From: a virus
Reading direction: 5' to 3' (one strand)
Length of the DNA: 64,000 bases
IMG/VR virus record: IMGVR_UViG_3300007351_000587
The translations under genes and the position numbers were made by a program. Below are positions 2,774 to 16,582 of this stretch, in pieces. Below the pieces are notes generated by a model. That model saw only the letters and a list, made by a program, of their open reading frames with translations, had not been told where the DNA came from and made no database searches. Numbering within the stretch: the first letter of the stretch is position 1; each line of letters opens with the position of its first letter.

Positions 2774-3739
2774 ATGAGTGAAATACTACAACCTTTTTTC
2801 CCTTATAATGGTGGTATATTTGCTACTGTTATTCTTCCTTCAAGGAAAAGACCTGCTTTATTGTGTAAAGCAATAGATTCTATCTATAGTTTGGCTGTAA
2901 ATAAGAATCATATTGAATTTATTGTTAAGGCTGATAGTGATGACCAAGAAACTCTTGATCTTTGTGAAAAACTTAGAAATTCTATCAATTTGAAAGTATT
3001 GGTGACCGATAGAGAAGATGGTTATTTGGGAATGCATAGATGGATAAACGAAATTGCACTAAAGCATGCAAAGGGTGATTGGTTATTTTTGTTTACAGAT
3101 GATGCTATTTTTGCTGGAGATGAATATCCAGAAGTAAGTGCTCAGAATTGGGACCAAAAACTGTTTGTTACAGCATTTGATAATACAGCTACTTGGCATG
3201 GTTGTCCTGATATATGTTCTTTAATCTGTTCTACATCTACTAGATCGTTTTCAGATTTCATTTTTGTTAGACGAAAAGTCATAGAAATATTAGGACATTA
3301 TTCTCCTATAACATGGACAAATATATATCTTCAAGCGGTATTGTGTTTTATCTCTTCTTCTTTTAGATACCAATTAGGTGTAATACACAATAGGGAAAAT
3401 GATAGAGCAGAAGATGAGGATATTTCAAGAAAAATTGCTCTGTTACAGGTAAATAATATTGAGGGAATTGAATTAAGAGCAAAAGATACTAAAAAACTAA
3501 TATCCTATATTGAGGATTGGAGAAGGAAGAGATGTGCAATTTGTAGAAAGTATTTGACTGAAGAATATTGGCTTCCAAGTGAAACCAAATCTTATATCAG
3601 GCTAGATTCAGGTTGCCATCATGGTGAATTCAACGTTTGCATCAATTGTGCCGACTATAATAGTTCTAGAAAGGCCGATTGTCCTATTTGCGGGTTAGAA
3701 ACGGCAATTCCAAGGGAAGAATTGGTTATTACATTTTAG
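2774..3739 (+). CDS. Glycosyltransferase family 2-like protein with a C-terminal Cys-rich (RING-like) region
   Basis: VILPSRKRP start, IVKADSDD, AKGDWLFLFTDD (GT-A DxD-like); CAIC...CHH...CINC...CPIC. Confidence 0.7.
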   Translation: MSEILQPFFPYNGGIFATVILPSRKRPALLCKAIDSIYSLAVNKNHIEFIVKADSDDQETLDLCEKLRNSINLKVLVTDREDGYLGMHRWINEIALKHAKGDWLFLFTDDAIFAGDEYPEVSAQNWDQKLFVTAFDNTATWHGCPDICSLICSTSTRSFSDFIFVRRKVIEILGHYSPITWTNIYLQAVLCFISSSFRYQLGVIHNRENDRAEDEDISRKIALLQVNNIEGIELRAKDTKKLISYIEDWRRKRCAICRKYLTEEYWLPSETKSYIRLDSGCHHGEFNVCINCADYNSSRKADCPICGLETAIPREELVITF

Positions 3740-4591: not shown

Positions 4592-4671
4592 TGCAAAATC
4601 TATTTGTTCAAGGTGATTTTACTCTTAATTCTGGACTAAAGAGTAACTGGAAAATAGTGTTAGACATTTGA
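4591..4671 (+). pseudogene. Stranded original 5' end of the PRTase gene (MQNLFVQGDFTLNSGLKSNWKIVLDI*)
   Basis: TAATG coupling to upstream gene; aligns with LFRSGNYRLHSGEMSTYKI at 5376. Confidence 0.75.
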
Positions 4672-4688
4672 AATAAGAATAATTATAA

Positions 4689-5768
4689 ATGTGTGTTGAT
4701 ATATTTTCTGATATTTTGTTGAACCTTAACTCAGGTGTTTATTGTTTTAGAAATTTTACCACTGGTAAAAGATATATTGGCTCAGCTTCTGTGTCTTTTA
4801 GAAATAGATTTTTAGGCTACAAAAGATCCTTGAGAAAAGGAGTTTGTCATAACAAATTACTGCAGAGAGCTTGGAATAAATATGGCGAATTGGATTTTGA
4901 GATAATAGTAGTAGAAATATGTTCTCCAGAAAATTGTATAGAAAGAGAAACTTATTGGATTTCTTTTTTCAATTCTGCCAATAAGAAGTTAGGGTACAAT
5001 ATTTGCCCAACAGGGAGAAATCACCTAGGAACTAAATTGACTTCTTCACATAAGAGAAAAATAGGAAAATCTAACTCTGTTGCGTTGTTAGGTAAAAAGG
5101 ATTCTTTAGAAACTAAAAAGAGAAAATCTGAGGCTTCTAAAGGAAAACCCAAAACTGTTTCACATAAATTAAATATATCCAAAAGTTTGACAGGAGTTAA
5201 TCGGGACGATAAGCTATCATTACTAGCAAGAATGACTTTACGACTAATTGCTAATAATCCTGAAATAACAAAACCTAAATTATTTGCTGATAATTTTTAT
5301 TGGAGGTACCCTGGGTTGTGGAAATCATTTAATTCTTGTAAATATGCTTTTAGGAAGTATTTTTCTAGGAAGGAGTTGTTTAGGTCGGGAAATTATAGAT
5401 TACATTCAGGTGAAATGTCAACATATAAAATTGATTGTAGTGTGTTGGCAGATTCTGATTGGAACACTTTAGCAAGTTTAGCCACAAATGTGTTACCTAA
5501 GTTTGGTAAAGTTGTTAGCGTCCCAACAGGTGGTGATATTTTTGCTTCTTGTTTGGAACAGTATGCTACTAAACGTGATACTGATCCAATACTAGTTGTT
5601 GATGATGTCTTGACAACAGGCAGATCCATGGAAGAAGTTAGAAATAGTATTGTTGGGAGTAATACGGAAGGCCCAAATAAAGTTATAGGTGTTGTTGCAT
5701 TTTCTAGAGGAAATTGTCCTGGGTGGATTACACCACTATTTCAATTCAATTATAGAGACCATCAGTGA
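4689..5768 (+). CDS. GIY-YIG endonuclease fused in frame to an orotate-PRTase-like (type I PRTase) domain (PRTase from ~5376)
   Basis: GVYCFRN...RYIGSA GIY-YIG motif, NUMOD3-like repeats; LHSG and LVVDDVLTTGRS PRPP-binding motif. Confidence 0.85.
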   Translation: MCVDIFSDILLNLNSGVYCFRNFTTGKRYIGSASVSFRNRFLGYKRSLRKGVCHNKLLQRAWNKYGELDFEIIVVEICSPENCIERETYWISFFNSANKKLGYNICPTGRNHLGTKLTSSHKRKIGKSNSVALLGKKDSLETKKRKSEASKGKPKTVSHKLNISKSLTGVNRDDKLSLLARMTLRLIANNPEITKPKLFADNFYWRYPGLWKSFNSCKYAFRKYFSRKELFRSGNYRLHSGEMSTYKIDCSVLADSDWNTLASLATNVLPKFGKVVSVPTGGDIFASCLEQYATKRDTDPILVVDDVLTTGRSMEEVRNSIVGSNTEGPNKVIGVVAFSRGNCPGWITPLFQFNYRDHQ

Positions 5769-6172
5769 ATATAGTGGTTTTAAGCATAGATAACGCGATG
5801 GATTTCAAATGTTCAGAGCCTTGGGCAGTAATAAGCGTTGTATCTGATGGAAGTCATCCTAAGTTATCTGCTGATAATAGGGTGGGTTTGTTGAGATTAG
5901 CATTTTGGGATGTAGATGATGTGATTCCATATCGTCCTAGAATGACTGAAGATCAGAGTATAGAGGTTTGGAAATTTATAGATGAAGTGTGGGATAAAAT
6001 ATCAACATTGGTTGTTCATTGTGAAGGTGGAATTTCTAGGTCTTCAGCAATAGCAGCAGCGATATCTAAAATTAAACTAGGCCATGAAGGTGGATTTTTT
6101 AGAACTCACATACCTAATAGGTATGTATATTCAACATTGTTAAGAGTTAATGAAAATAGGAAGAAACAATAA
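5765..6172 (+). CDS. Protein-tyrosine/dual-specificity phosphatase-like protein
   Basis: VHCEGGISRS CX5R motif. Confidence 0.8.
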   Translation: MNIVVLSIDNAMDFKCSEPWAVISVVSDGSHPKLSADNRVGLLRLAFWDVDDVIPYRPRMTEDQSIEVWKFIDEVWDKISTLVVHCEGGISRSSAIAAAISKIKLGHEGGFFRTHIPNRYVYSTLLRVNENRKKQ

Positions 6173-6184
6173 GGAGAATTAGTT

Positions 6185-6556
6185 ATGAGTGAAGAGTATG
6201 AAGATCTTGGCGAGCTTGTGCAGCAAGCTTTTGATAAGTATTTATTGGAACGTCTTCCGGGATTGATGGAAAAACACATGCCGCTTGTGGACAATCTAAT
6301 TGCTCAACGTATTAATGGTGGCTATACGCCAGAACTCAACAAAGAATATTTTAATCGTATTCAAAGTATTGTTGAAACTACAGTTGGTAATTATTTGCGA
6401 GTTGGTGGGGGAAGGGATATAGTTGATTCGACAGTTTTGAAATATCTTGATAAGAAACTTGAAGAGCATATAGAGAGTCAGGTTAAATGGCGTGTTAGTA
6501 GATTCATGGAAAGAATTCAAAAGAAGTTTGAGGAAGAAACCAAAGGAGTATCTTAA
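6185..6556 (+). CDS. Hypothetical protein
   Basis: AGGAG SD; ORF track. Confidence 0.65.
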   Translation: MSEEYEDLGELVQQAFDKYLLERLPGLMEKHMPLVDNLIAQRINGGYTPELNKEYFNRIQSIVETTVGNYLRVGGGRDIVDSTVLKYLDKKLEEHIESQVKWRVSRFMERIQKKFEEETKGVS

Positions 6557-6558
6557 TT

Positions 6559-7917
6559 ATGGATAATTTATTGCTGATGACCGACTCTTACAAAGTGTCT
6601 CATTGGAAACAGTATCCGCCAGGGACGGAAACAGTTTACTCTAATTTTGAGTCTCGTGGTGGTAAATGGAATGATATTGTATTTTTTGGATTGCAATATC
6701 TGTTAGAGAAGTATTTAGAATCATGGAGAGTGACCCAACCTAATATTCTAGAAGCTGCTGATCTTCTTAAGAACCATATTGGACATTTTAATTCAGAGGG
6801 TTGGTATCATATACTCGACAAACATAATGGTCATCTTCCAGTAAGTATTAAAGCTGTACCAGAAGGAACTGTAGTTCCTGTTCATAATGTATTGATGACC
6901 ATTGAAAACACTGATCCTAAATGTTACTGGTTAACCAATTATTTAGAAACACTTCTTGTACAGACTTGGTATCCATGCACTGTAGCAACTCAGTCTAGAG
7001 AAATGAAGAAGATCCTTTTAGATTATTTAAACATAACAGGCACTCCAGCTGATATTGACTTCAAGTTGCATGATTTTGGATTTAGGGGAGTTTCTTCTGT
7101 AGAGTCTGCTGGAATTGGTGGAGCAGCGCATTTAGTTAATTTCAAAGGAACTGATACATTAGCTGGTATTGTGTTAGCTGAAAAGTACTATGCTGCTAAT
7201 ATGCCTGGATTTAGTATTCCAGCAGCTGAGCATTCTACTATTACTTCTTGGGGCAGAGATAAAGAAGTTGATGCATTTAGAAATATGCTGGATCAATACC
7301 CTAAAGGTTTAGTTGCGGTTGTAAGCGACTCTTATAACATCTATAACGCTTGTAGGAACTTGTGGGGAATAGAATTAAAGGACAAGGTCATTTCCCGAGA
7401 TGGAACTGTGGTAGTACGTCCTGACAGTGGAGATCCAATTACTACAGTTATCCACGTTTTGGATGCGTTAGGGGAGAATTTTGGAACTGTTAAGAACAAA
7501 AAGGGATATAAAGTGTTACCATCACAGTTGAGAATTATTCAAGGTGATGGTATAGATATTGTGATGATGCAAAGAATCCTTGATAATATGTATATGCGTG
7601 GTTATTCTGCTGATAATATTGCGTTTGGATCTGGTGGTGGATTACTTCAGAAGTTGGATAGGGATACTTGTAAGTTTGCATTTAAATGTTCTTCAGTAAC
7701 TGTAAATGGTGAAGAAAGAGATGTTTGGAAGGATCCTATTACTGATTCTGGAAAGAAATCTAAGCGTGGCAAATTGAAATTAATCAAAACAGAAGATGGT
7801 TTTAAGACTGTTAGGAACACTGAACAAGGCGATGATAACTTAGTTGAAGTATTTAGAGATGGTAAGATTTTAGTTCGACATACATTTGATGAAATTCGTG
7901 AAAGAGCTAAGATTTAA
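6559..7917 (+). CDS. nadV: Nicotinamide phosphoribosyltransferase family protein (NAMPT/NadV or its phage paralog Namat)
   Basis: TDSYKVSH, LHDFGFRG, PAAEHS, VVSDSY, VRPDSGDP, IIQGDG, FGSGGGLLQK motifs. Confidence 0.92.
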   Translation: MDNLLLMTDSYKVSHWKQYPPGTETVYSNFESRGGKWNDIVFFGLQYLLEKYLESWRVTQPNILEAADLLKNHIGHFNSEGWYHILDKHNGHLPVSIKAVPEGTVVPVHNVLMTIENTDPKCYWLTNYLETLLVQTWYPCTVATQSREMKKILLDYLNITGTPADIDFKLHDFGFRGVSSVESAGIGGAAHLVNFKGTDTLAGIVLAEKYYAANMPGFSIPAAEHSTITSWGRDKEVDAFRNMLDQYPKGLVAVVSDSYNIYNACRNLWGIELKDKVISRDGTVVVRPDSGDPITTVIHVLDALGENFGTVKNKKGYKVLPSQLRIIQGDGIDIVMMQRILDNMYMRGYSADNIAFGSGGGLLQKLDRDTCKFAFKCSSVTVNGEERDVWKDPITDSGKKSKRGKLKLIKTEDGFKTVRNTEQGDDNLVEVFRDGKILVRHTFDEIRERAKI

Positions 7918-10281: not shown

Positions 10282-11256
10282 ATGGAACTTGAAGAACTTG
10301 AGCAAATGATGAAAGACGCTCGCTCTCCCAAGGAGTTTTTTGGAAGGGACGCAGCTAAGAATTTGAAGAAGTTTTTAGGTATTTGTCATCCAGATAGAAA
10401 TCCAGGTGATGCAAAAGCTGTTGAGTTATTTAAGAAAATCAATGATTGGTATGAGGAGTTGGAAACTCCTTCTGTTGTAATTAAGTCTCCTAAACGTGGC
10501 TATACTGTATTAAAGCATTTGACATCTGGTGATGTTTCTGACATATATTTAGCGGAAGCTGCTAATAAAGACTATCTTCTAAAGATATCTAGAATAGATG
10601 ATGGAGAGAAGTATTTAGAGATAGAAAAAAACACGGTAGCTGATTTGTTGACTAAAGCTGGAGATTCTACTTATTCTAAGTATTTACCAACTTTTGTTGA
10701 ATCGTTTCCGGCTAAAGACACTATTGCGAAGAGAGTAAATGTATTTACGTATGATCCTGGTTTCTATTCGTTAGAACAAGTTAAAAATCAATATAAGGAT
10801 GGTGTGGATGGAAGAGATTTGGCATGGATGTTTAATAGAATATTGACTGGTTTAGGTTTTATTCATAAATCTGGTTATGTGCACGGTGCGGTATTACCTT
10901 CACATATTTTGATTCATCCAGAGAGCCATGGTGGTAGATTTTGTGGGTTTGTTCATAGTGTGAAGATTGGTGAAAAAGTTGATACTATCTCTGTAGATTA
11001 CAAGAGTTGGTATCCAAAAGAAGTTAATGATAAGGAAAAGGTAGGTCCAGCTTCAGATATCTATATGGCTGCTAAATGTGCTGAGCGCATTATGAGAGAA
11101 GACACTCCTAGAAAGATCAAGAATTTTGTATATTCATGTATGTTGGAGAGTCCAAGTATGAGACCTAATGATGCTTGGCTCTTATATGAAGAATTCAAAG
11201 ATTTGTTATCTGATGTTTATGGTAAGAGAAAGTTTCACATTTTTACAATGAATTAA
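10282..11256 (+). CDS. Degenerate J-domain fused to an atypical Ser/Thr-kinase-like domain
   Basis: CHPDRN (HPD); kinase-like GDVSDIY, LLKISR, VHGAVLPSHILI; lacks canonical HRD/DFG. Confidence 0.75.
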   Translation: MELEELEQMMKDARSPKEFFGRDAAKNLKKFLGICHPDRNPGDAKAVELFKKINDWYEELETPSVVIKSPKRGYTVLKHLTSGDVSDIYLAEAANKDYLLKISRIDDGEKYLEIEKNTVADLLTKAGDSTYSKYLPTFVESFPAKDTIAKRVNVFTYDPGFYSLEQVKNQYKDGVDGRDLAWMFNRILTGLGFIHKSGYVHGAVLPSHILIHPESHGGRFCGFVHSVKIGEKVDTISVDYKSWYPKEVNDKEKVGPASDIYMAAKCAERIMREDTPRKIKNFVYSCMLESPSMRPNDAWLLYEEFKDLLSDVYGKRKFHIFTMN

Positions 11257-11295
11257 TTGTGTTTGTTGTAAGTAACCTTATGAAAGGGGTTTCCA

Positions 11296-12285
11296 ATGGG
11301 TACAACTAGATGGTCGGATGCTCATTATACGGATCGTATTTCGGTAAGAGCAGCAACTAATACTCCTACGTTTGCCTATGATAGTGCTGTTAAAACAGCA
11401 GCTCTGTCTGGTAAGGTTGAGGATGTTCATAAGAGTCTTAACATCAAAGATGTTAAGATGCGTGAGAGTCGGGATTCTAAGGATCACCCAACTTCAACTG
11501 CAGTAGCTGTATTGTTTGATGTAACTGGTTCTATGTCCACTGTTCCAGCTATTCTTCAGAAGAATCTTCCTAAGTTGATGGGACTGTTGATTCGTAAGGG
11601 ATATGTGGAACATCCACAAATTATGATTGGCGCCATTGGAGATGCTACTTGCGATAGATATCCAATTCAGATTGGTCAGTTTGAGTCCGGTATAGAGATG
11701 GAAGACAATCTTACTAATATTATCCTTGAAGGCGGTGGTGGTGGACAGAAGACAGAATCTTATGAACTAGCTATGTATTTTATGGCTAAACATACCAGCT
11801 TGGATTGTTTCGAGAAGAGAAACAAGAAGGGCTATTTGTTTATTGTAGGCGATGAGATGGCCTACAATAAGATTGATCGTAAGTTGGTGAAGCAGTATAT
11901 TGGTGATGATTTGGAAGCTAATCTTTCCACTAAGAATTTGGTGGAAGAATTGAAGAAGATGTATGAAGTTTATTACATTCTTCCAAAGCAGACTGCTCAC
12001 TATAATGACACGGATGTTGAGAGCTTTTGGAAGGGTTTATTGGGTCAGAATTTCCTGAAGTTGGATGATCCGGCTGGTATTAGTGAATTGATTGCTACTA
12101 CAGTTGGATTGGTTGAAGGGAATACTGATATTGAAAGCGTCAAGGAAGATTTGAAGGAAGTTGGAACTAACACTATTACTGCTGATGCAGTGTCTAGAGC
12201 GTTGGTAGAGCTTCCTAACACTGGTAAGAAGTTACCTGCTAAGGTTAAGTCCTCTAGTAAGAAATCTGGTGTTGCAAAAGTTTGA
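11296..12285 (+). CDS. vWA-domain protein
   Basis: LFDVTGSMS MIDAS motif; GGGGGQKTESYELA; FIVGDE. Confidence 0.82.
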   Translation: MGTTRWSDAHYTDRISVRAATNTPTFAYDSAVKTAALSGKVEDVHKSLNIKDVKMRESRDSKDHPTSTAVAVLFDVTGSMSTVPAILQKNLPKLMGLLIRKGYVEHPQIMIGAIGDATCDRYPIQIGQFESGIEMEDNLTNIILEGGGGGQKTESYELAMYFMAKHTSLDCFEKRNKKGYLFIVGDEMAYNKIDRKLVKQYIGDDLEANLSTKNLVEELKKMYEVYYILPKQTAHYNDTDVESFWKGLLGQNFLKLDDPAGISELIATTVGLVEGNTDIESVKEDLKEVGTNTITADAVSRALVELPNTGKKLPAKVKSSSKKSGVAKV

Positions 12286-12286
12286 T

Positions 12287-12605
12287 CCACTAATGGACCG
12301 GGTGGTGATCGGCTAAGTCATACGGTGTATCTGTTAGCTACATTTTATATGTACAAATAAAATGGCAACACCGATTTGTAATGTTGAATATTAACATCCA
12401 AGTTGGGTAACCAACAACAATCCAGTGAAAGACTGGGTGGTAACAAGCTGGGGTAATGGCGGAAGAGCGCCACTGGCAACCTGGGGAAAGAGATTCTTTC
12501 AGAACCATACTGAAAACCCAACCATCCGTAACGATATAATGTATGGGATTGCGTTACTATAGCGACTCTATTGCGGTGATGGAAAAGAATCCTTTGGATG
12601 TTAAT
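12287..12605 (+). ncRNA. Unassigned structured RNA candidate (~320 nt)
   Basis: 12-bp helix 12390-12401/12594-12605, several hairpins and a potential pseudoknot; only long intergenic gap in the region; strand inferred from neighbours. Confidence 0.55.
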
Positions 12606-12607
12606 TT

Positions 12608-12680
12608 GGACCACTGGCATGTCTGGGATTGCATCCGCCTGTTAAGCGGAATTAGCTGGGTCCGATTCCCAGGTGGTCCT
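12608..12680 (+). tRNA. tRNA-Asn(GTT)
   Basis: GGACCAC/GTGGTCC acceptor; TCCGC-CTGTTAA-GCGGA; T-arm CTGGG-TCCGATT-CCCAG; no CCA. Confidence 0.85.
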
Positions 12681-12685
12681 TTTAT

Positions 12686-13036
12686 ATGATTCTAATAACA
12701 ACCGATGAATCTGGCCAGATGGAGCAAGTTAATTCTAGAATAACAAGGCTCTTGTATTTGGTGGTTACTCAGGTTCAAATCCTGAGCAAATACCGTCGGT
12801 TGTTATTGGGTACAATGTCGGAGGATGTGATGCGAAGATTCAGCCAAGGTTGGCGTAAGTTTTATTGTGAAGATTGTAAATTTGTGTTTGAAGAAGCGAC
12901 GAGGGATTATCAAACTCCCTCGTTGTCTCTTTGTCCTAAGTGTTCAGAAGAAGTGTTTCCAATTAGTGGACGAGAAGATTTAACTCTTCCTATTGATAGA
13001 TTTGGAAACTTGAAAGGAACTTTTCCCAATGAATAG
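12686..13036 (+). CDS. Zn-ribbon (FmdB-like) protein; real start possibly 12815
   Basis: FYCEDC...CPKCS. Confidence 0.5.
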   Translation: MILITTDESGQMEQVNSRITRLLYLVVTQVQILSKYRRLLLGTMSEDVMRRFSQGWRKFYCEDCKFVFEEATRDYQTPSLSLCPKCSEEVFPISGREDLTLPIDRFGNLKGTFPNE

Positions 13037-13138
13037 AAGAACTTTTGGATTGGCTGGTCTTGTTGGATTAATGTTGTTAATTCATTAGAAACTGCTGAGC
13101 AGGGCAATCAAAAGAAGATTCAAAATGAATCATTTTCT

Positions 13139-13441
13139 ATGTTAGATTGGGTAGATAAAAATAGACGTTTGTTAAGTAAAGGATTTGTACGTCAATATGA
13201 GGAATATGTTCCTATCTTCAACGAAGATGAAGAAGTTGTAAAGTTTCACAATGTTCATATTGAATGGACAGTATTTGATAAATACAATAATGTTGGTTTT
13301 AAACCAATTAGGAAACAGTTGATGGAACCAATATGGAATAAAACATCTGGTTTATATGAACTATTACCCGTAAGTTGTTTTGCATATAACATTAATGATT
13401 ATGAATTTTCAGTAGAGTGGAACGGAAGATTATATCAGTAA
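13139..13441 (+). CDS. Hypothetical protein
   Basis: ORF track. Confidence 0.55.
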   Translation: MLDWVDKNRRLLSKGFVRQYEEYVPIFNEDEEVVKFHNVHIEWTVFDKYNNVGFKPIRKQLMEPIWNKTSGLYELLPVSCFAYNINDYEFSVEWNGRLYQ

Positions 13442-13452
13442 CAGGAGTTAAA

Positions 13453-13497
13453 ATGAGGGCCATAATTACGGTTGGATTAGGTTTTGGGAGTGTTTGA
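13453..13497 (+). pseudogene. Stranded original 5' end of the purA-like gene (MRAIITVGLGFGSV*)
   Basis: AGGAG SD at 13443; peptide nearly identical to MTKAIITVGLGWG at 14567. Confidence 0.82.
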
Positions 13498-13500
13498 AGT

Positions 13501-14574
13501 TTGAATGACAGTATGATTGTAACTGAGGATACTCCAAAAGAATTAATTGCAACATGCCCTAAGTGCAAAAACGTTGAGGTTCGTAGAAAGAAGAAAACAG
13601 GGAGAATTCCTTATTGTTTTGATTGTTTTAAGAAAACTAAACATTGTGATAAGAATGGAAATAGAACACCAAACAAAGCAATACCTTTTGAATCTCTGTG
13701 CCAATATTGCAACAGTAAGTTTTTATATTCTAAAAAGAGAAATAAACATGGAACTTTTGTTTGTGAAAATTGTATAGGGCTTCACAAGGAGAACTTATAT
13801 CAAAGAAAGAAATCTCATATAATACAAAACTACAGAGAAAATGTGGATTTGGAGAAAAGAAAGAGATTATCTAGAGAGTTACCAAAAGTTGGACTTTCTA
13901 TAGAATGGTACGATTTGTTGGAAAAGAAATGTGGAATTTGTGGCACGTGCGATTTTGCTAACAATTGGTGTTTAGATCATGATCATAATTGTTGTCCATA
14001 TGGTGAATACTGTAGTAAATGTGTCAGAGGCATTCTTTGTGAGAGATGTAATGTAGGATTAGGAGGGTTTAAGGAAAATACAGAAAGTCTATTATCGGCC
14101 ATTGGATGGATTATGCATCAGAAAGATTCTCCGCAAGGATTAGGAATTACTTGTTTATATTGTGAAAATGCATATAAACCTCAAGATAAATATAAATGGT
14201 CTCATAAAATTTGTGTGGATTGTAAATCTAAATATCCCAAGAGGGGTTGTAGAAAACAATTGAGAGACGAGTGGAAAAACAATCCAAATGTTAGAAACAG
14301 AAAAAGGTTAATTTCAAAACTCAATAAAATTGGGGTAAGTGTTGAATGGTATGAGAAATATTCACGAGCATGTGGTATTTGTGGGTGTACAGATCAATTG
14401 TCAATAGACCATAAACATGGTTGTGAGTTTTGTAATTATTATTGTTATTTGTGCATAAGAGGCTTGTTATGTAGAAATTGTAATTTTGGACTAGGATGTT
14501 TTAAAGACAACGTTAAAACACTAGAAGCAGCTATCAAATGGTTGCAAAGTAAAGGATGTAATAGAAATGACTAA
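13501..14574 (+). CDS. Endonuclease VII-like (His-Me finger) homing endonuclease with two tandem nuclease-like repeats
   Basis: CGICG...LDHDH...RGILCERCNVGLG and CGICG...IDHKH...RGLLCRNCNFGLG. Confidence 0.82.
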   Translation: MNDSMIVTEDTPKELIATCPKCKNVEVRRKKKTGRIPYCFDCFKKTKHCDKNGNRTPNKAIPFESLCQYCNSKFLYSKKRNKHGTFVCENCIGLHKENLYQRKKSHIIQNYRENVDLEKRKRLSRELPKVGLSIEWYDLLEKKCGICGTCDFANNWCLDHDHNCCPYGEYCSKCVRGILCERCNVGLGGFKENTESLLSAIGWIMHQKDSPQGLGITCLYCENAYKPQDKYKWSHKICVDCKSKYPKRGCRKQLRDEWKNNPNVRNRKRLISKLNKIGVSVEWYEKYSRACGICGCTDQLSIDHKHGCEFCNYYCYLCIRGLLCRNCNFGLGCFKDNVKTLEAAIKWLQSKGCNRND

Positions 14575-15775
14575 AGCCATTATAACTGTGGGATTGGGGT
14601 GGGGAGATGAAGGAAAGGGAAGTACCGTAGATTACCTTGTTAGAAAGTGCAATTCCAAATTAGTTGTACGGTATTGTGGTGGATCTCAAGCTGGACATAA
14701 CGTGGTTTTACCTGATGGTAGAAAACATTGCTTTTCCCAATTTGGATCAGGCACACTAGCTGGAGCTAAGACATATTTAGGGAAACACGTAATCATCCAT
14801 CCTTCCAATCTTAGAAATGAGGCAAGGCATTTGAAGGAATTAGGAATAGATAATCCAGCATCCTTGTTGACTATTAATAAGAATGCTTTAGTTTCTACTC
14901 CTTATCATGAAGCAATTAACCGTGCTAAAGAAATATCTAGATCTGATGTTTTAGTAAACACACATGGTCGTAAAGATGATTTGAGACATGGATCTTGTGG
15001 TCATGGAATTGGTGAAACCCGTAGATATTGGAAAGATTATGGAAGTGATGCTGTGTTTGTAGGGGATTTATTTGGTTCTAAGAGCGTGTTGTCTGATAAG
15101 CTTGAATTGATGCGTCAACGATTGATGGATAAAAATTATAAGCATGCTTACTTATATGATGGTGGTGTAATAGGAAAAGATGGACCTTATAACCCTGTAT
15201 GGGATGAGTTTGATCCAATTTTTACTGAAAAGATGAGTGTTGTAGTAAATGATTTGGTAAAAGATCAGTATTTTAAATATTCTGTAGATTCTAATGGTAT
15301 TCCAGAGATATGGAAGTATGAGGGGACACCAATTATATTTGAAGGGGCGCAGGGTGTACTACTTGACGAGTGGTATGGTTTTTTCCCTTATGTAACTCAT
15401 AGTACTCTTACTCCTAGATTTGCTATTGAGACGTGTGATGAAGCTAAAATTGATGATTATTATGTGTTAGGAATTAGTAGATCTTATATGACTCGCCATG
15501 GTCATGGTCCTTTTCCAACATATAGTGAAGAACTAACCGAACAGTTTAAAGATGACGGAAATCCCCAAAACCAATGGCAGGGGAGTTTAAGATGTGGTAA
15601 GTTAGATATGGGGTTATTGAGGTATTCGGTTAGATGTTGTGATGGAATTGATGGTATCGCTGTAACATGTTTGGATCAGATTAAAGACCATGAATTGAGT
15701 GAACTGGCTCCAGTTGTTCTGGAGTCTTATGGGCCAACTTATTTAGATAGAAAAGAAGTTGGTGTTTTAAATTGA
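14567..15775 (+). CDS. Divergent adenylosuccinate synthetase (PurA-like)
   Basis: GLGWGDEGKG, QAGHNV, FEGAQGVLLD, YMTRHGHGPFPT. Confidence 0.85.
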   Translation: MTKAIITVGLGWGDEGKGSTVDYLVRKCNSKLVVRYCGGSQAGHNVVLPDGRKHCFSQFGSGTLAGAKTYLGKHVIIHPSNLRNEARHLKELGIDNPASLLTINKNALVSTPYHEAINRAKEISRSDVLVNTHGRKDDLRHGSCGHGIGETRRYWKDYGSDAVFVGDLFGSKSVLSDKLELMRQRLMDKNYKHAYLYDGGVIGKDGPYNPVWDEFDPIFTEKMSVVVNDLVKDQYFKYSVDSNGIPEIWKYEGTPIIFEGAQGVLLDEWYGFFPYVTHSTLTPRFAIETCDEAKIDDYYVLGISRSYMTRHGHGPFPTYSEELTEQFKDDGNPQNQWQGSLRCGKLDMGLLRYSVRCCDGIDGIAVTCLDQIKDHELSELAPVVLESYGPTYLDRKEVGVLN

Positions 15776-16254
15776 AAGGTTATATGTTAGAGAATTTGAC
15801 AAAAGAAGAACAAGCTACTAATTATCACACAATGCGTCATATTGAGATTGTTCGTAACAATCTCAATATGTTCATTACTGATTTGTTGAAACGCGGTGAA
15901 TTACACGATCAAACTAAGTTAGAACAACCTGAAGTTGCTTATTTTTCTTTATACACTGATAAGCTGGCTACTTGTACGTATGGAAGTGCTGAGTATGAAG
16001 GTTATAGGAAAGCTATGGACCCAGCACTCACACATCATTATGCTAGAAATAGACACCATCCAGAGCATTGGAAGAATGGTATAGATGATATGAATTTGTT
16101 GGATTTATGTGAGATGTTTTGTGATTGGTTAGCAGCTAGTAAACGACATAATGATGGTAACATACTTAAAAGTATTGAAAAGAATGCTGATAGGTTTAAG
16201 ATGTCCCCTCAGTTAGTTAAGATATTTGAGAATACTGCCAAGGAGTTTCAGTAG
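15772..16254 (+). CDS. His-rich HD-like protein (DUF5662-like)
   Basis: LHDQTK...HHYARNRHHPEHW...EMFCDW. Confidence 0.7.
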   Translation: MKGYMLENLTKEEQATNYHTMRHIEIVRNNLNMFITDLLKRGELHDQTKLEQPEVAYFSLYTDKLATCTYGSAEYEGYRKAMDPALTHHYARNRHHPEHWKNGIDDMNLLDLCEMFCDWLAASKRHNDGNILKSIEKNADRFKMSPQLVKIFENTAKEFQ

Positions 16255-16255
16255 C

Positions 16256-16582
16256 ATGAGCGATGCTAAATATATTCTTTGTGTACTTGGCAAAGATGAA
16301 GAACTTAGTTTAGAACAAGCTACAAAATATGTGGCAGATTCCTTGAATAAGCAATATCAATCATCTTTGTGGAGTGGTTTGTTTACTCCAACAGAGTTTG
16401 AATACATAGATAAAAAGATGACTATTATTGGTGATTCTTGGTTTAGTGAAGAAAGAAAATGGTGTCGATATAATTTTCTTTTGAAGGGAATAGAAACAGA
16501 TACTGATTGTAATGGTGATTCACTTCCTAACCGTTTAATGTATTGGTTGGGAGAATCCAAACTAATAGAAAAACCAAAATAG
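16256..16582 (+). CDS. Hypothetical protein
   Basis: ORF track (ATG 16256). Confidence 0.55.
   Translation: MSDAKYILCVLGKDEELSLEQATKYVADSLNKQYQSSLWSGLFTPTEFEYIDKKMTIIGDSWFSEERKWCRYNFLLKGIETDTDCNGDSLPNRLMYWLGESKLIEKPK

Follow-up and report, generated by a model that had tools for sequence, protein, structure and literature searches.

A candidate gene-end-replacing homing cassette at the purA start of a phage-like contig

We analysed a 64,000-nucleotide (nt) stretch of viral DNA, IMG/VR record IMGVR_UViG_3300007351_000587 (hereafter the window), which belongs to a phage-like contig of 85.7 kb that was binned with a 1.4-Mb genome. Within it, a free-standing nuclease gene of the Endonuclease VII (Endo VII) type lies between an orphan copy of the purA start, here called the relic, and a complete gene for a purA-like adenylosuccinate synthetase. 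We consider it likely that these three elements form a homing cassette that replaces a gene end, the nuclease having brought a substitute 5′ end to purA and the old end having been left upstream.

Anatomy of the purA locus

The relic is a short open reading frame (ORF) whose codons 1–12 (13453–13488) correspond to the old purA 5′ end and whose last two codons and stop are junction sequence (Table 1). The upstream gene, of 100 amino acids (aa), stops at 13439–13441, the AGGAG of a Shine-Dalgarno (SD) sequence follows directly, and the relic ATG lies 11 nt past that stop. The left junction carries stops in three frames within 22 nt and includes an alternative TTG start at 13501. The nuclease begins either at this in-frame TTG or at ATG 13513, which has no SD of its own and is separated from the relic stop by a gap of 15 nt. 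At its other end, the nuclease stop (ATGACTAA) and the purA ATG at 14567 overlap by 8 nt, and AAAGGA at 14551–14556 is a possible SD for purA. With spacers of 15 nt and −8 nt, the relic, nuclease and purA ORFs look translationally chained, and it is plausible that the nuclease is started by reinitiation after the relic ORF.

The relic and the working purA start have 9 of 10 residues in common (AIITVGLG-G) and 21 of 30 nt, the sole residue change being F/W, and the relic breaks off directly 5′ of the DEGKG codons. Its AIITVGLGFG equals residues 3–12 of P0001, the product of the uninterrupted purA on contigs L003 and L004, and agrees with the family consensus at 10 of 10 positions; the match is also in register with a start codon and a canonical ribosome-binding site. 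As a genome-wide control, residues 2–19 of 1118 ORFs (at least 120 aa, from the 1.4-Mb assembly) were searched for their best 10-residue match in the 3 kb upstream. The relic/purA pair scored 44 and ranked fourth of the 1118 (median 23, 99th percentile 36), and the scores as high or higher looked like adjacent paralogues. Flank controls at 85 other IMG/VR Endo VII nuclease genes, in both directions, gave a maximum score of 35 in 125 tests. On these comparisons the short ORF is a real stranded purA 5′ end, chance likeness being excluded. One might still suspect that the similarity is due to chance, or that strains with and without the nuclease were joined in assembly, as the contig comes from a metagenome bin and the relic measures only 36 nt. 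We judge this highly improbable, since both controls put the match far outside chance and in register with SD and start, the two copies have no identical stretch of more than 8 nt, which left an assembler without a repeat to jump across, and the nuclease protein is recorded from two contigs of up to 85.8 kb.

An earlier sequence-only reading of this DNA had described a short SD-led ORF matching the purA N-terminus and a break just before DEGKG. Both descriptions stand, the first on the sequence and on the two controls, the second on the sequence. The same reading made its case depend on an uninterrupted allele in relatives. This was recovered at the protein level in L003 and L004, whose PurA is 59% identical and equals the relic at residues 3–12, but the relic's exact DNA was not found in a 29-nt exact search of IMG/VR.

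The short ORF might alternatively be a first exon of purA, or a take-off site, that is joined to the rest of the gene through a group I intron, an intein or ribosomal bypass. In its favour, joining the two copies at whatever point would yield a correct PurA N-terminus, and phage homing nucleases are often intron-resident. We nevertheless give this explanation next to no credence: the relic has a stop and the complete purA has its own start, which makes joining unnecessary, a scan of 12000–16500 at E up to 1 returned no group I or group II intron and no other Rfam family, and only 15 nt of non-coding sequence before the nuclease and an 8-nt overlap after it leave no room for a ribozyme core. 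To our knowledge, a ribosomal bypass of 1.1 kb has no precedent, which counts against that variant. An intein is ruled out by the TGA stop of the relic and by the nuclease and purA being separate, overlapping ORFs in different frames. An intron-encoded nuclease of the group I type was likewise rejected, no ribozyme core having been detected in the Rfam scan or accommodated by the spacers.

Table 1. Coordinates of the features discussed in the text (window positions unless a contig is named)
Feature	Position	Strand	Basis or remark
Shine-Dalgarno sequence AGGAG of the relic purA start	13443..13447	+	Sequence; ATG 13453 follows after 5 nt
Relic ORF MRAIITVGLGFGSV plus stop, 14 codons	13453..13497	+	Sequence and ORF list; stop (TGA) 13495–13497
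Left junction AGTGTTTGAAGTTTGAA	13489..13505	+	14/17 nt match to left junction of GIY-YIG cassette (4656–4672)
Free-standing Endo VII/DHHRN nuclease gene, 353 aa	13513..14574	+	Pfam PF02945, motif scan, homologues
Nuclease module 1, aa 1–207	13513..14133	+	Two CxxC zinc ribbons, helical linker, Endo VII core aa 140–180
Nuclease module 2, aa 208–353	14134..14571	+	One zinc ribbon, linker, second complete Endo VII core aa 287–324
Putative replacement purA 5′ end, codons 1–13, MTKAIITVGLGWG	14567..14605	+	Sequence
Complete purA-like adenylosuccinate synthetase gene, 402 aa, opening MTKAIITVGLGWGDEGKG	14567..15775	+	Pfam PF00709, E 3.3e-59
Stranded N-terminus of small phosphoribosyltransferase, 26 codons	4591..4671	+	Break after invariant K-I
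GIY-YIG nuclease (4689–5375), in frame into complete second phosphoribosyltransferase copy (5376–5768)	4689..5768	+	
Head-to-head purA and nuclease starts of relatives	L005:4938–5001; L006:4983–5001; L008:~2947–3001; L009:1415–1426; L010:2989–2990		No DNA for the contig of P0122
Kinase-like/vWA-like genes	window 10282–12285; L004:3–1909; L006:2759–3661 and 5644–6612		

Divergence and origin of the two purA starts

The two purA ends are conserved in protein and diverged in DNA. Seven of the nine synonymous codon pairs differ between relic and working end, so that two are identical where 3.3 would be expected from phage codon usage. A comparable picture is given by the whole purA gene of the window against that of L003, in which 48% of codons at identical residues are identical, against 47% expected. 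The silent sites are saturated, that is, no more different than a random choice of codons would make them. Because a useless stub cannot keep its residues while its silent sites saturate, the copies must have diverged as working genes in separate lineages before they were joined; they are alleles that diverged while both were functional and that gene conversion would then have brought together.

Saturation with kept residues argues against the origin put forward in the sequence-only reading, namely that insertion of the nuclease duplicated the 5′ end in place and that the working copy was then silently recoded to escape the nuclease, and it argues for import of a foreign 5′ end. The proposal of in-place recoding can point to the number of synonymous codons that differ and to a break adjoining the most conserved codons, a typical homing target. 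It is nonetheless very unlikely in our view, and the claim that the nuclease 'duplicates and recodes' the gene did not survive: the synonymous differences are at the random level both in the relic and across the gene, a useless stub would lose residues and yet the relic fits the family consensus throughout, and the corresponding ends in a sister cassette, described below, differ in residues as well, as divergent alleles do.

A further possibility concerns the polarity of the exchange. If it were reversed, the whole purA would be native, and relic and nuclease would have arrived together in the upstream spacer, the relic being the donor's homology arm. In the model developed for the WHO elements of yeasts the fragment does travel with the element, six relatives of the nuclease sit just upstream of a purA start and not inside the gene, and composition is silent on direction. 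We regard this order of events as unlikely, given that the relic holds the native-start position, with its SD and ATG close behind the stop of the upstream gene, and that the nuclease appears to be tied by translation to the start of the working purA. Codon identity to L003 (L003:1627–2823) at synonymous sites hints weakly at import of the 5′ part, being 40% in codons 1–150 and 55% in codons 151–402 (Fisher p 0.035). This gradient may be a faint trace of a co-conversion tract, and thus of a chimeric purA.

The nuclease, its relatives and a sister cassette

Pfam PF02945 (Endonuclease_7) matches the nuclease in two stretches (E 3.2e-18), which correspond to two modules. The first, in which a motif scan found CGIC...DHDH...R172...CERC-N180, is the full-length equivalent of single-module relatives, with 40–46% identity to P0122, P0123 and P0124 (alignments A1 and A2), while the second, without the first zinc ribbon, carries CGIC...DHKH...R...CRNC-N. 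Both modules thus show the pattern CxxC...DH(D/K)H...R...CxxC-N of the F-CphI family. The F-CphI/DHHRN signature was defined, and tested by mutagenesis, as CX2-4C, DHDH, R and CX2C followed by N, and the D, the first H and the second H of DHDH in F-CphI are described as important and the second D as non-essential (Fang et al. 2018, PMC6083498). The motif evidence supports assignment of the nuclease to this homing-endonuclease family. What had been called an EndoVII-like nuclease is accordingly confirmed in its family by Pfam and motif, with the correction that it is a tandem of two Endo VII modules.

Because aa 173–353, which carry module 2, are only 29% identical to aa 1–172 (alignment A1), the module pair would have arisen by an ancient duplication or by the fusion of two nucleases. 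Since T4 Endo VII works as a dimer, one may speculate that two active sites in a single chain could allow an asymmetric site to be cut on both strands. A single-sequence fold of the nuclease was unusable (predicted local distance difference test, pLDDT, 36).

The closest relatives of the nuclease in a collection of 5.8 billion proteins were P0122, P0123 and P0124 (37–43% identity, 214–230 aa), and IMG/VR contributed full-length relatives on contigs L008, L009 and L010. Six full-length relatives (P0122, L005, L006, L008, L009 and L010) are 34–43% identical to the nuclease and each consists of one module. All six are head to head with a phage purA, the start codons lying 0 to ~50 nt apart (Table 1). 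No purA occurs within 3 kb of any of 77 more distant Endo VII loci, and there is none at P0125 either. Such fidelity to purA starts is what a homing endonuclease cutting near the purA start would show, and the gene order supports a nuclease lineage tied to purA starts. Its placement is free-standing and patchy: it stands beside purA here and in the six relatives, and is absent from the syntenic L003 and L004. As a side observation, each gene's promoter in the head-to-head pairs must fall inside the other gene, because the start codons are so close together.

About 9 kb from the purA cassette, the window contains a second cassette of the same architecture with a nuclease of a different family, in which the target is a small phosphoribosyltransferase (PRTase). 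The stranded PRTase N-terminus precedes a GIY-YIG nuclease that runs in frame into a complete second PRTase copy (Table 1); residues F5, S14, G15, K21 and I22 are invariant across the PRTase family (alignment A3), and the second copy begins where family proteins begin, with a possible TTG start after AGGAAGGAG. Stub and new end are 35% identical, that is, residues differ too, which points to a foreign allele and not to silent recoding. The PRTase family itself comprises 1625 representatives (E up to 0.001), mostly stand-alone proteins of 125–135 aa. Many representatives are longer (up to 554 aa) with the domain at the C-terminus, and fusions to N-terminal partners may be common.

Directly after the break in both cassettes stands AGTGTTWGANNTTTGAA, in which 14 of 17 nt are identical. 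The sequence-only reading had noticed that both stranded fragments continue into AGTGTT(T/A)GA, and this likeness proved to extend over the full 17 nt. The 16-mer GTGTTWGANNTTTGAA has only these two copies in the 85.7-kb contig, both strands searched, and 47 of 200,000 random position pairs match as well when ±3-nt freedom is allowed (empirical p ~2e-4, post hoc). The 9-mer AGTGTTWGA alone is not enriched in the window (5 found vs 2.05 expected). In IMG/VR the 17-mer has at least 116 scattered single matches, a count that seems no more than chance would yield in so large a collection, and among the matches listed none lies near a relative of either nuclease, of purA or of PRTase. In both cassettes, RNA folding predicts a hairpin that covers the nuclease start or lies just beyond it and whose 5′ arm is formed by the motif; the z-scores of the junction folds (−1.9 and +0.1) are not evidence alone. 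The motif common to the two junctions is at present unexplained. The earlier suggestion that two nuclease families had converged on one strategy is upheld in that the second cassette is equally real, but the independence of the two cases is softened by the shared motif.

The purA gene of the window, presumed to be the target of the nuclease, is the only copy in the assembly. Its Pfam PurA match ends at profile position 331 of 416, which indicates a trimmed PurA. NCBIfam scores were below the cut-off both for PurZ (NF038379, 42.7 bits vs 300) and for the PurA equivalog (166 vs 402), and the best PDB matches of the product are bacterial PurA. Identity with PurZ, of the 2-aminoadenine pathway, was ruled out on the low PurZ score and these PDB matches. 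The nearest PurA in the 5.8-billion-protein search was P0001; its contigs are syntenic with the window over the kinase-like, vWA-like, purA and DUF5662 genes, and their purA opens MKAIITVGLGFGDEGKG. The gene immediately upstream of purA differs between L003/L004 and the window, and because of this, left-side homology would be missing in a cross between window-type and L003-type genomes. After this phage relative, the nearest PurA proteins with a named source (45–52% identity) are from planctomycetes (Gemmataceae, Pirellulaceae).

Other searches returned little. A purA search of IMG/VR gave one locus at 35% identity, the upstream 100-aa gene had no match there, and look-ups of the nuclease and of the fusion protein of the window gave no closer relative. 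Searching 3.1 kb of DNA against 49 genomes from the bin's family gave only 30-nt chance matches, and among INPHARED phages the best purA genes, from mycobacteriophages, were less than 40% identical. A promoter and terminator scan of 12600–16400 was at shuffle level. In view of the planctomycete PurA proteins, and with the members of the bin's family all ~1 Mb against 1.4 Mb for the bin, the bin assignment or the host may be questioned.

In the window, nearly all genes are carried by one strand, among them those for NAMPT, ribonucleotide reductase, single-stranded DNA-binding protein (SSB), a J-domain kinase-like protein and a vWA-like protein. The last two genes accompany purA in all related phage contigs seen, in varying order (Table 1). 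DUF5662 lies directly 3′ of purA both here (the two genes together spanning 14567–16254) and in the 59% identical relative (L003:1627–3499); an H-D and RHHPEH pattern seen in it by eye suggests a possible HD-type hydrolase.

Proposed homing route and known systems

A gene-end-replacing homing cassette at the purA start is the explanation that we favour, with reasonable confidence. It is grounded in the anatomy of the locus, the family signature of the nuclease, the attachment of its lineage to purA starts, the relative with an uninterrupted gene and the saturation at silent sites. From these we infer the cut site, the immunity, the direction of transfer and the translational coupling, as follows. 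An Endo VII-type nuclease specialised on the first purA codons would cut a nuclease-free purA near codon 12–13, before the P-loop codons DEGKG. The right end would invade a donor purA, and copying would proceed leftward through the donor 5′ end and the nuclease gene. Repair from the nuclease-carrying genome would in this way import the nuclease together with the donor's diverged, presumably uncuttable purA 5′ end, while the recipient's old 5′ end, with its SD and start, would be displaced upstream as the 12-codon relic. The working purA would then be a chimera with foreign first codons.

At its first occurrence this process probably required a left junction without homology, formed in one-sided homology repair; for T4, homing of this one-sided kind, with illegitimate junctions, has been documented (review PMC2988022). 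In later rounds of homing the left side could close against the resident relic, as in the WHO model, so that relic and upstream DNA would serve as the left homology arm. As the relic would hold only a broken target and the working copy a diverged one, the cassette would be immune to its own nuclease, and immunity of the new purA end may reasonably be expected from the way homing works. The translation signals of the relic probably feed ribosomes to the nuclease, which in turn may be translationally coupled to purA.

Several observations weigh against this gene-end replacement. Motif and flank scans found no relic in the six divergently oriented relatives (motif scan of L005–L010), and a co-directional form with a relic and two modules has so far been seen in the window only. 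The composition of the nuclease (GC 32%; GC at third codon positions, GC3, 0.24) equals that of the phage's own genes (GC3 0.265 ± 0.053) and bears no mark of recent or foreign origin. No search route led to a close relative, and hence to a nuclease-free allele with the exact DNA of the relic. Finally, 12 codons cannot show which copy is native: of the 30 nt compared with L003, the relic agrees at 24 and the new end at 22.

It may also be asked whether the relic and the 17-nt motif are scars at all. They could instead be working parts of a modular phage homing cassette, the relic acting as left arm and ribosome launch pad and the motif as an exchangeable element, for expression or for the junction, that serves two unrelated nuclease families. 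We put this forward tentatively and think it doubtful; if true, phages would possess a general means, as yet unpublished, of entering gene starts that requires neither intron nor intein.

Gene-end replacement, if it occurred as outlined, would mean that phage homing nucleases can settle inside the starts of essential genes without an intron, an intein or a split gene, by carrying a substitute end. Short orphan ORFs before nuclease genes would be footprints that point to probable cutting positions. In the invaded genes the opening codons may differ in history from the rest, which matters for phylogenies and for annotation. The locus also points to a defined Endo VII-type clade with a predictable target, the P-loop region of purA, and the tandem two-module nuclease and the motif common to two unrelated cassettes offer concrete leads.

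Replacement of gene ends has already been published for fungal mitochondria and for yeasts. In fungal mitochondria, mORF hybrid genes are known for atp6, atp9, cox2 and nad3 of Glomus (Beaudet et al. 2013, PMC3630166), a paper that cites Paquin et al. 1994 for an atp6 mORF hybrid in Allomyces macrogynus. As in the window, an endonuclease ORF was inserted there with a foreign gene end, the native end was orphaned beside it, and the two ends are alike in protein and far apart in DNA; nuclease and gene end can moreover be in phase with the host gene, as in our GIY-YIG case. The mORFs differ in that the 3′ end is replaced, the mirror image of the 5′ replacement here, in a mitochondrion and not a bacteriophage, and in that their nucleases are LAGLIDADG or GIY-YIG as opposed to Endo VII/DHHRN. 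The orphan in the window, unlike theirs, keeps an SD and a start, which probably serve translation of the nuclease.

The WHO elements found in yeasts of the genera Torulaspora and Lachancea are also similar: the fragment serves them as a homology arm, and resistance comes with the replaced end (Coughlan et al. 2020, PMC7282813). They too home without intron or intein: the nuclease cleaves a sensitive housekeeping allele, the gene end is replaced and the old end stays behind as a fragment, the mobile unit being the nuclease plus a resistance-conferring gene end. In contrast to the single relic here, they replace the 3′ end of FBA1 and leave clusters of old fragments, and their nuclease family is another one. 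Cleavage and allele specificity have been demonstrated for WHO elements, whereas here they are presumed.

Among phages, F-CphI of cyanophage S-PM2 is likewise a free-standing nuclease with a C-terminal Endo VII core beside a conserved target gene, going by the available part of its description (PMC6083498), which makes no mention of a gene-end duplication. Its target is psbA instead of purA, and the nuclease of the window differs from it in having two catalytic modules and N-terminal zinc ribbons. Free-standing nucleases of the T4 type include SegF, SegG and MobE, with intronless homing, and mobA with its gene 60 insert (review PMC2988022); mobE splits nrdA in Aeh1 (PMC2988022; see also PMC3045599). 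These share with our case intron-less homing with co-conversion of flanking markers, a nuclease beside or inside an essential gene of nucleotide metabolism, and illegitimate junctions that one-sided homology can yield. They are unlike it in that the target is left untouched or is split into two working pieces. In the literature searched we found no T4-type case in which the gene is kept whole by a substitute end with the old end stranded, and no published description of gene-end replacement by a homing nuclease in a phage; Barth et al. 2023, who treat phage nuclease genes, do not mention it. Against these known systems, the points particular to the present locus are a purA-specific Endo VII clade, a tandem nuclease, the 5′-end polarity, and two cassettes with a common junction motif in one genome.

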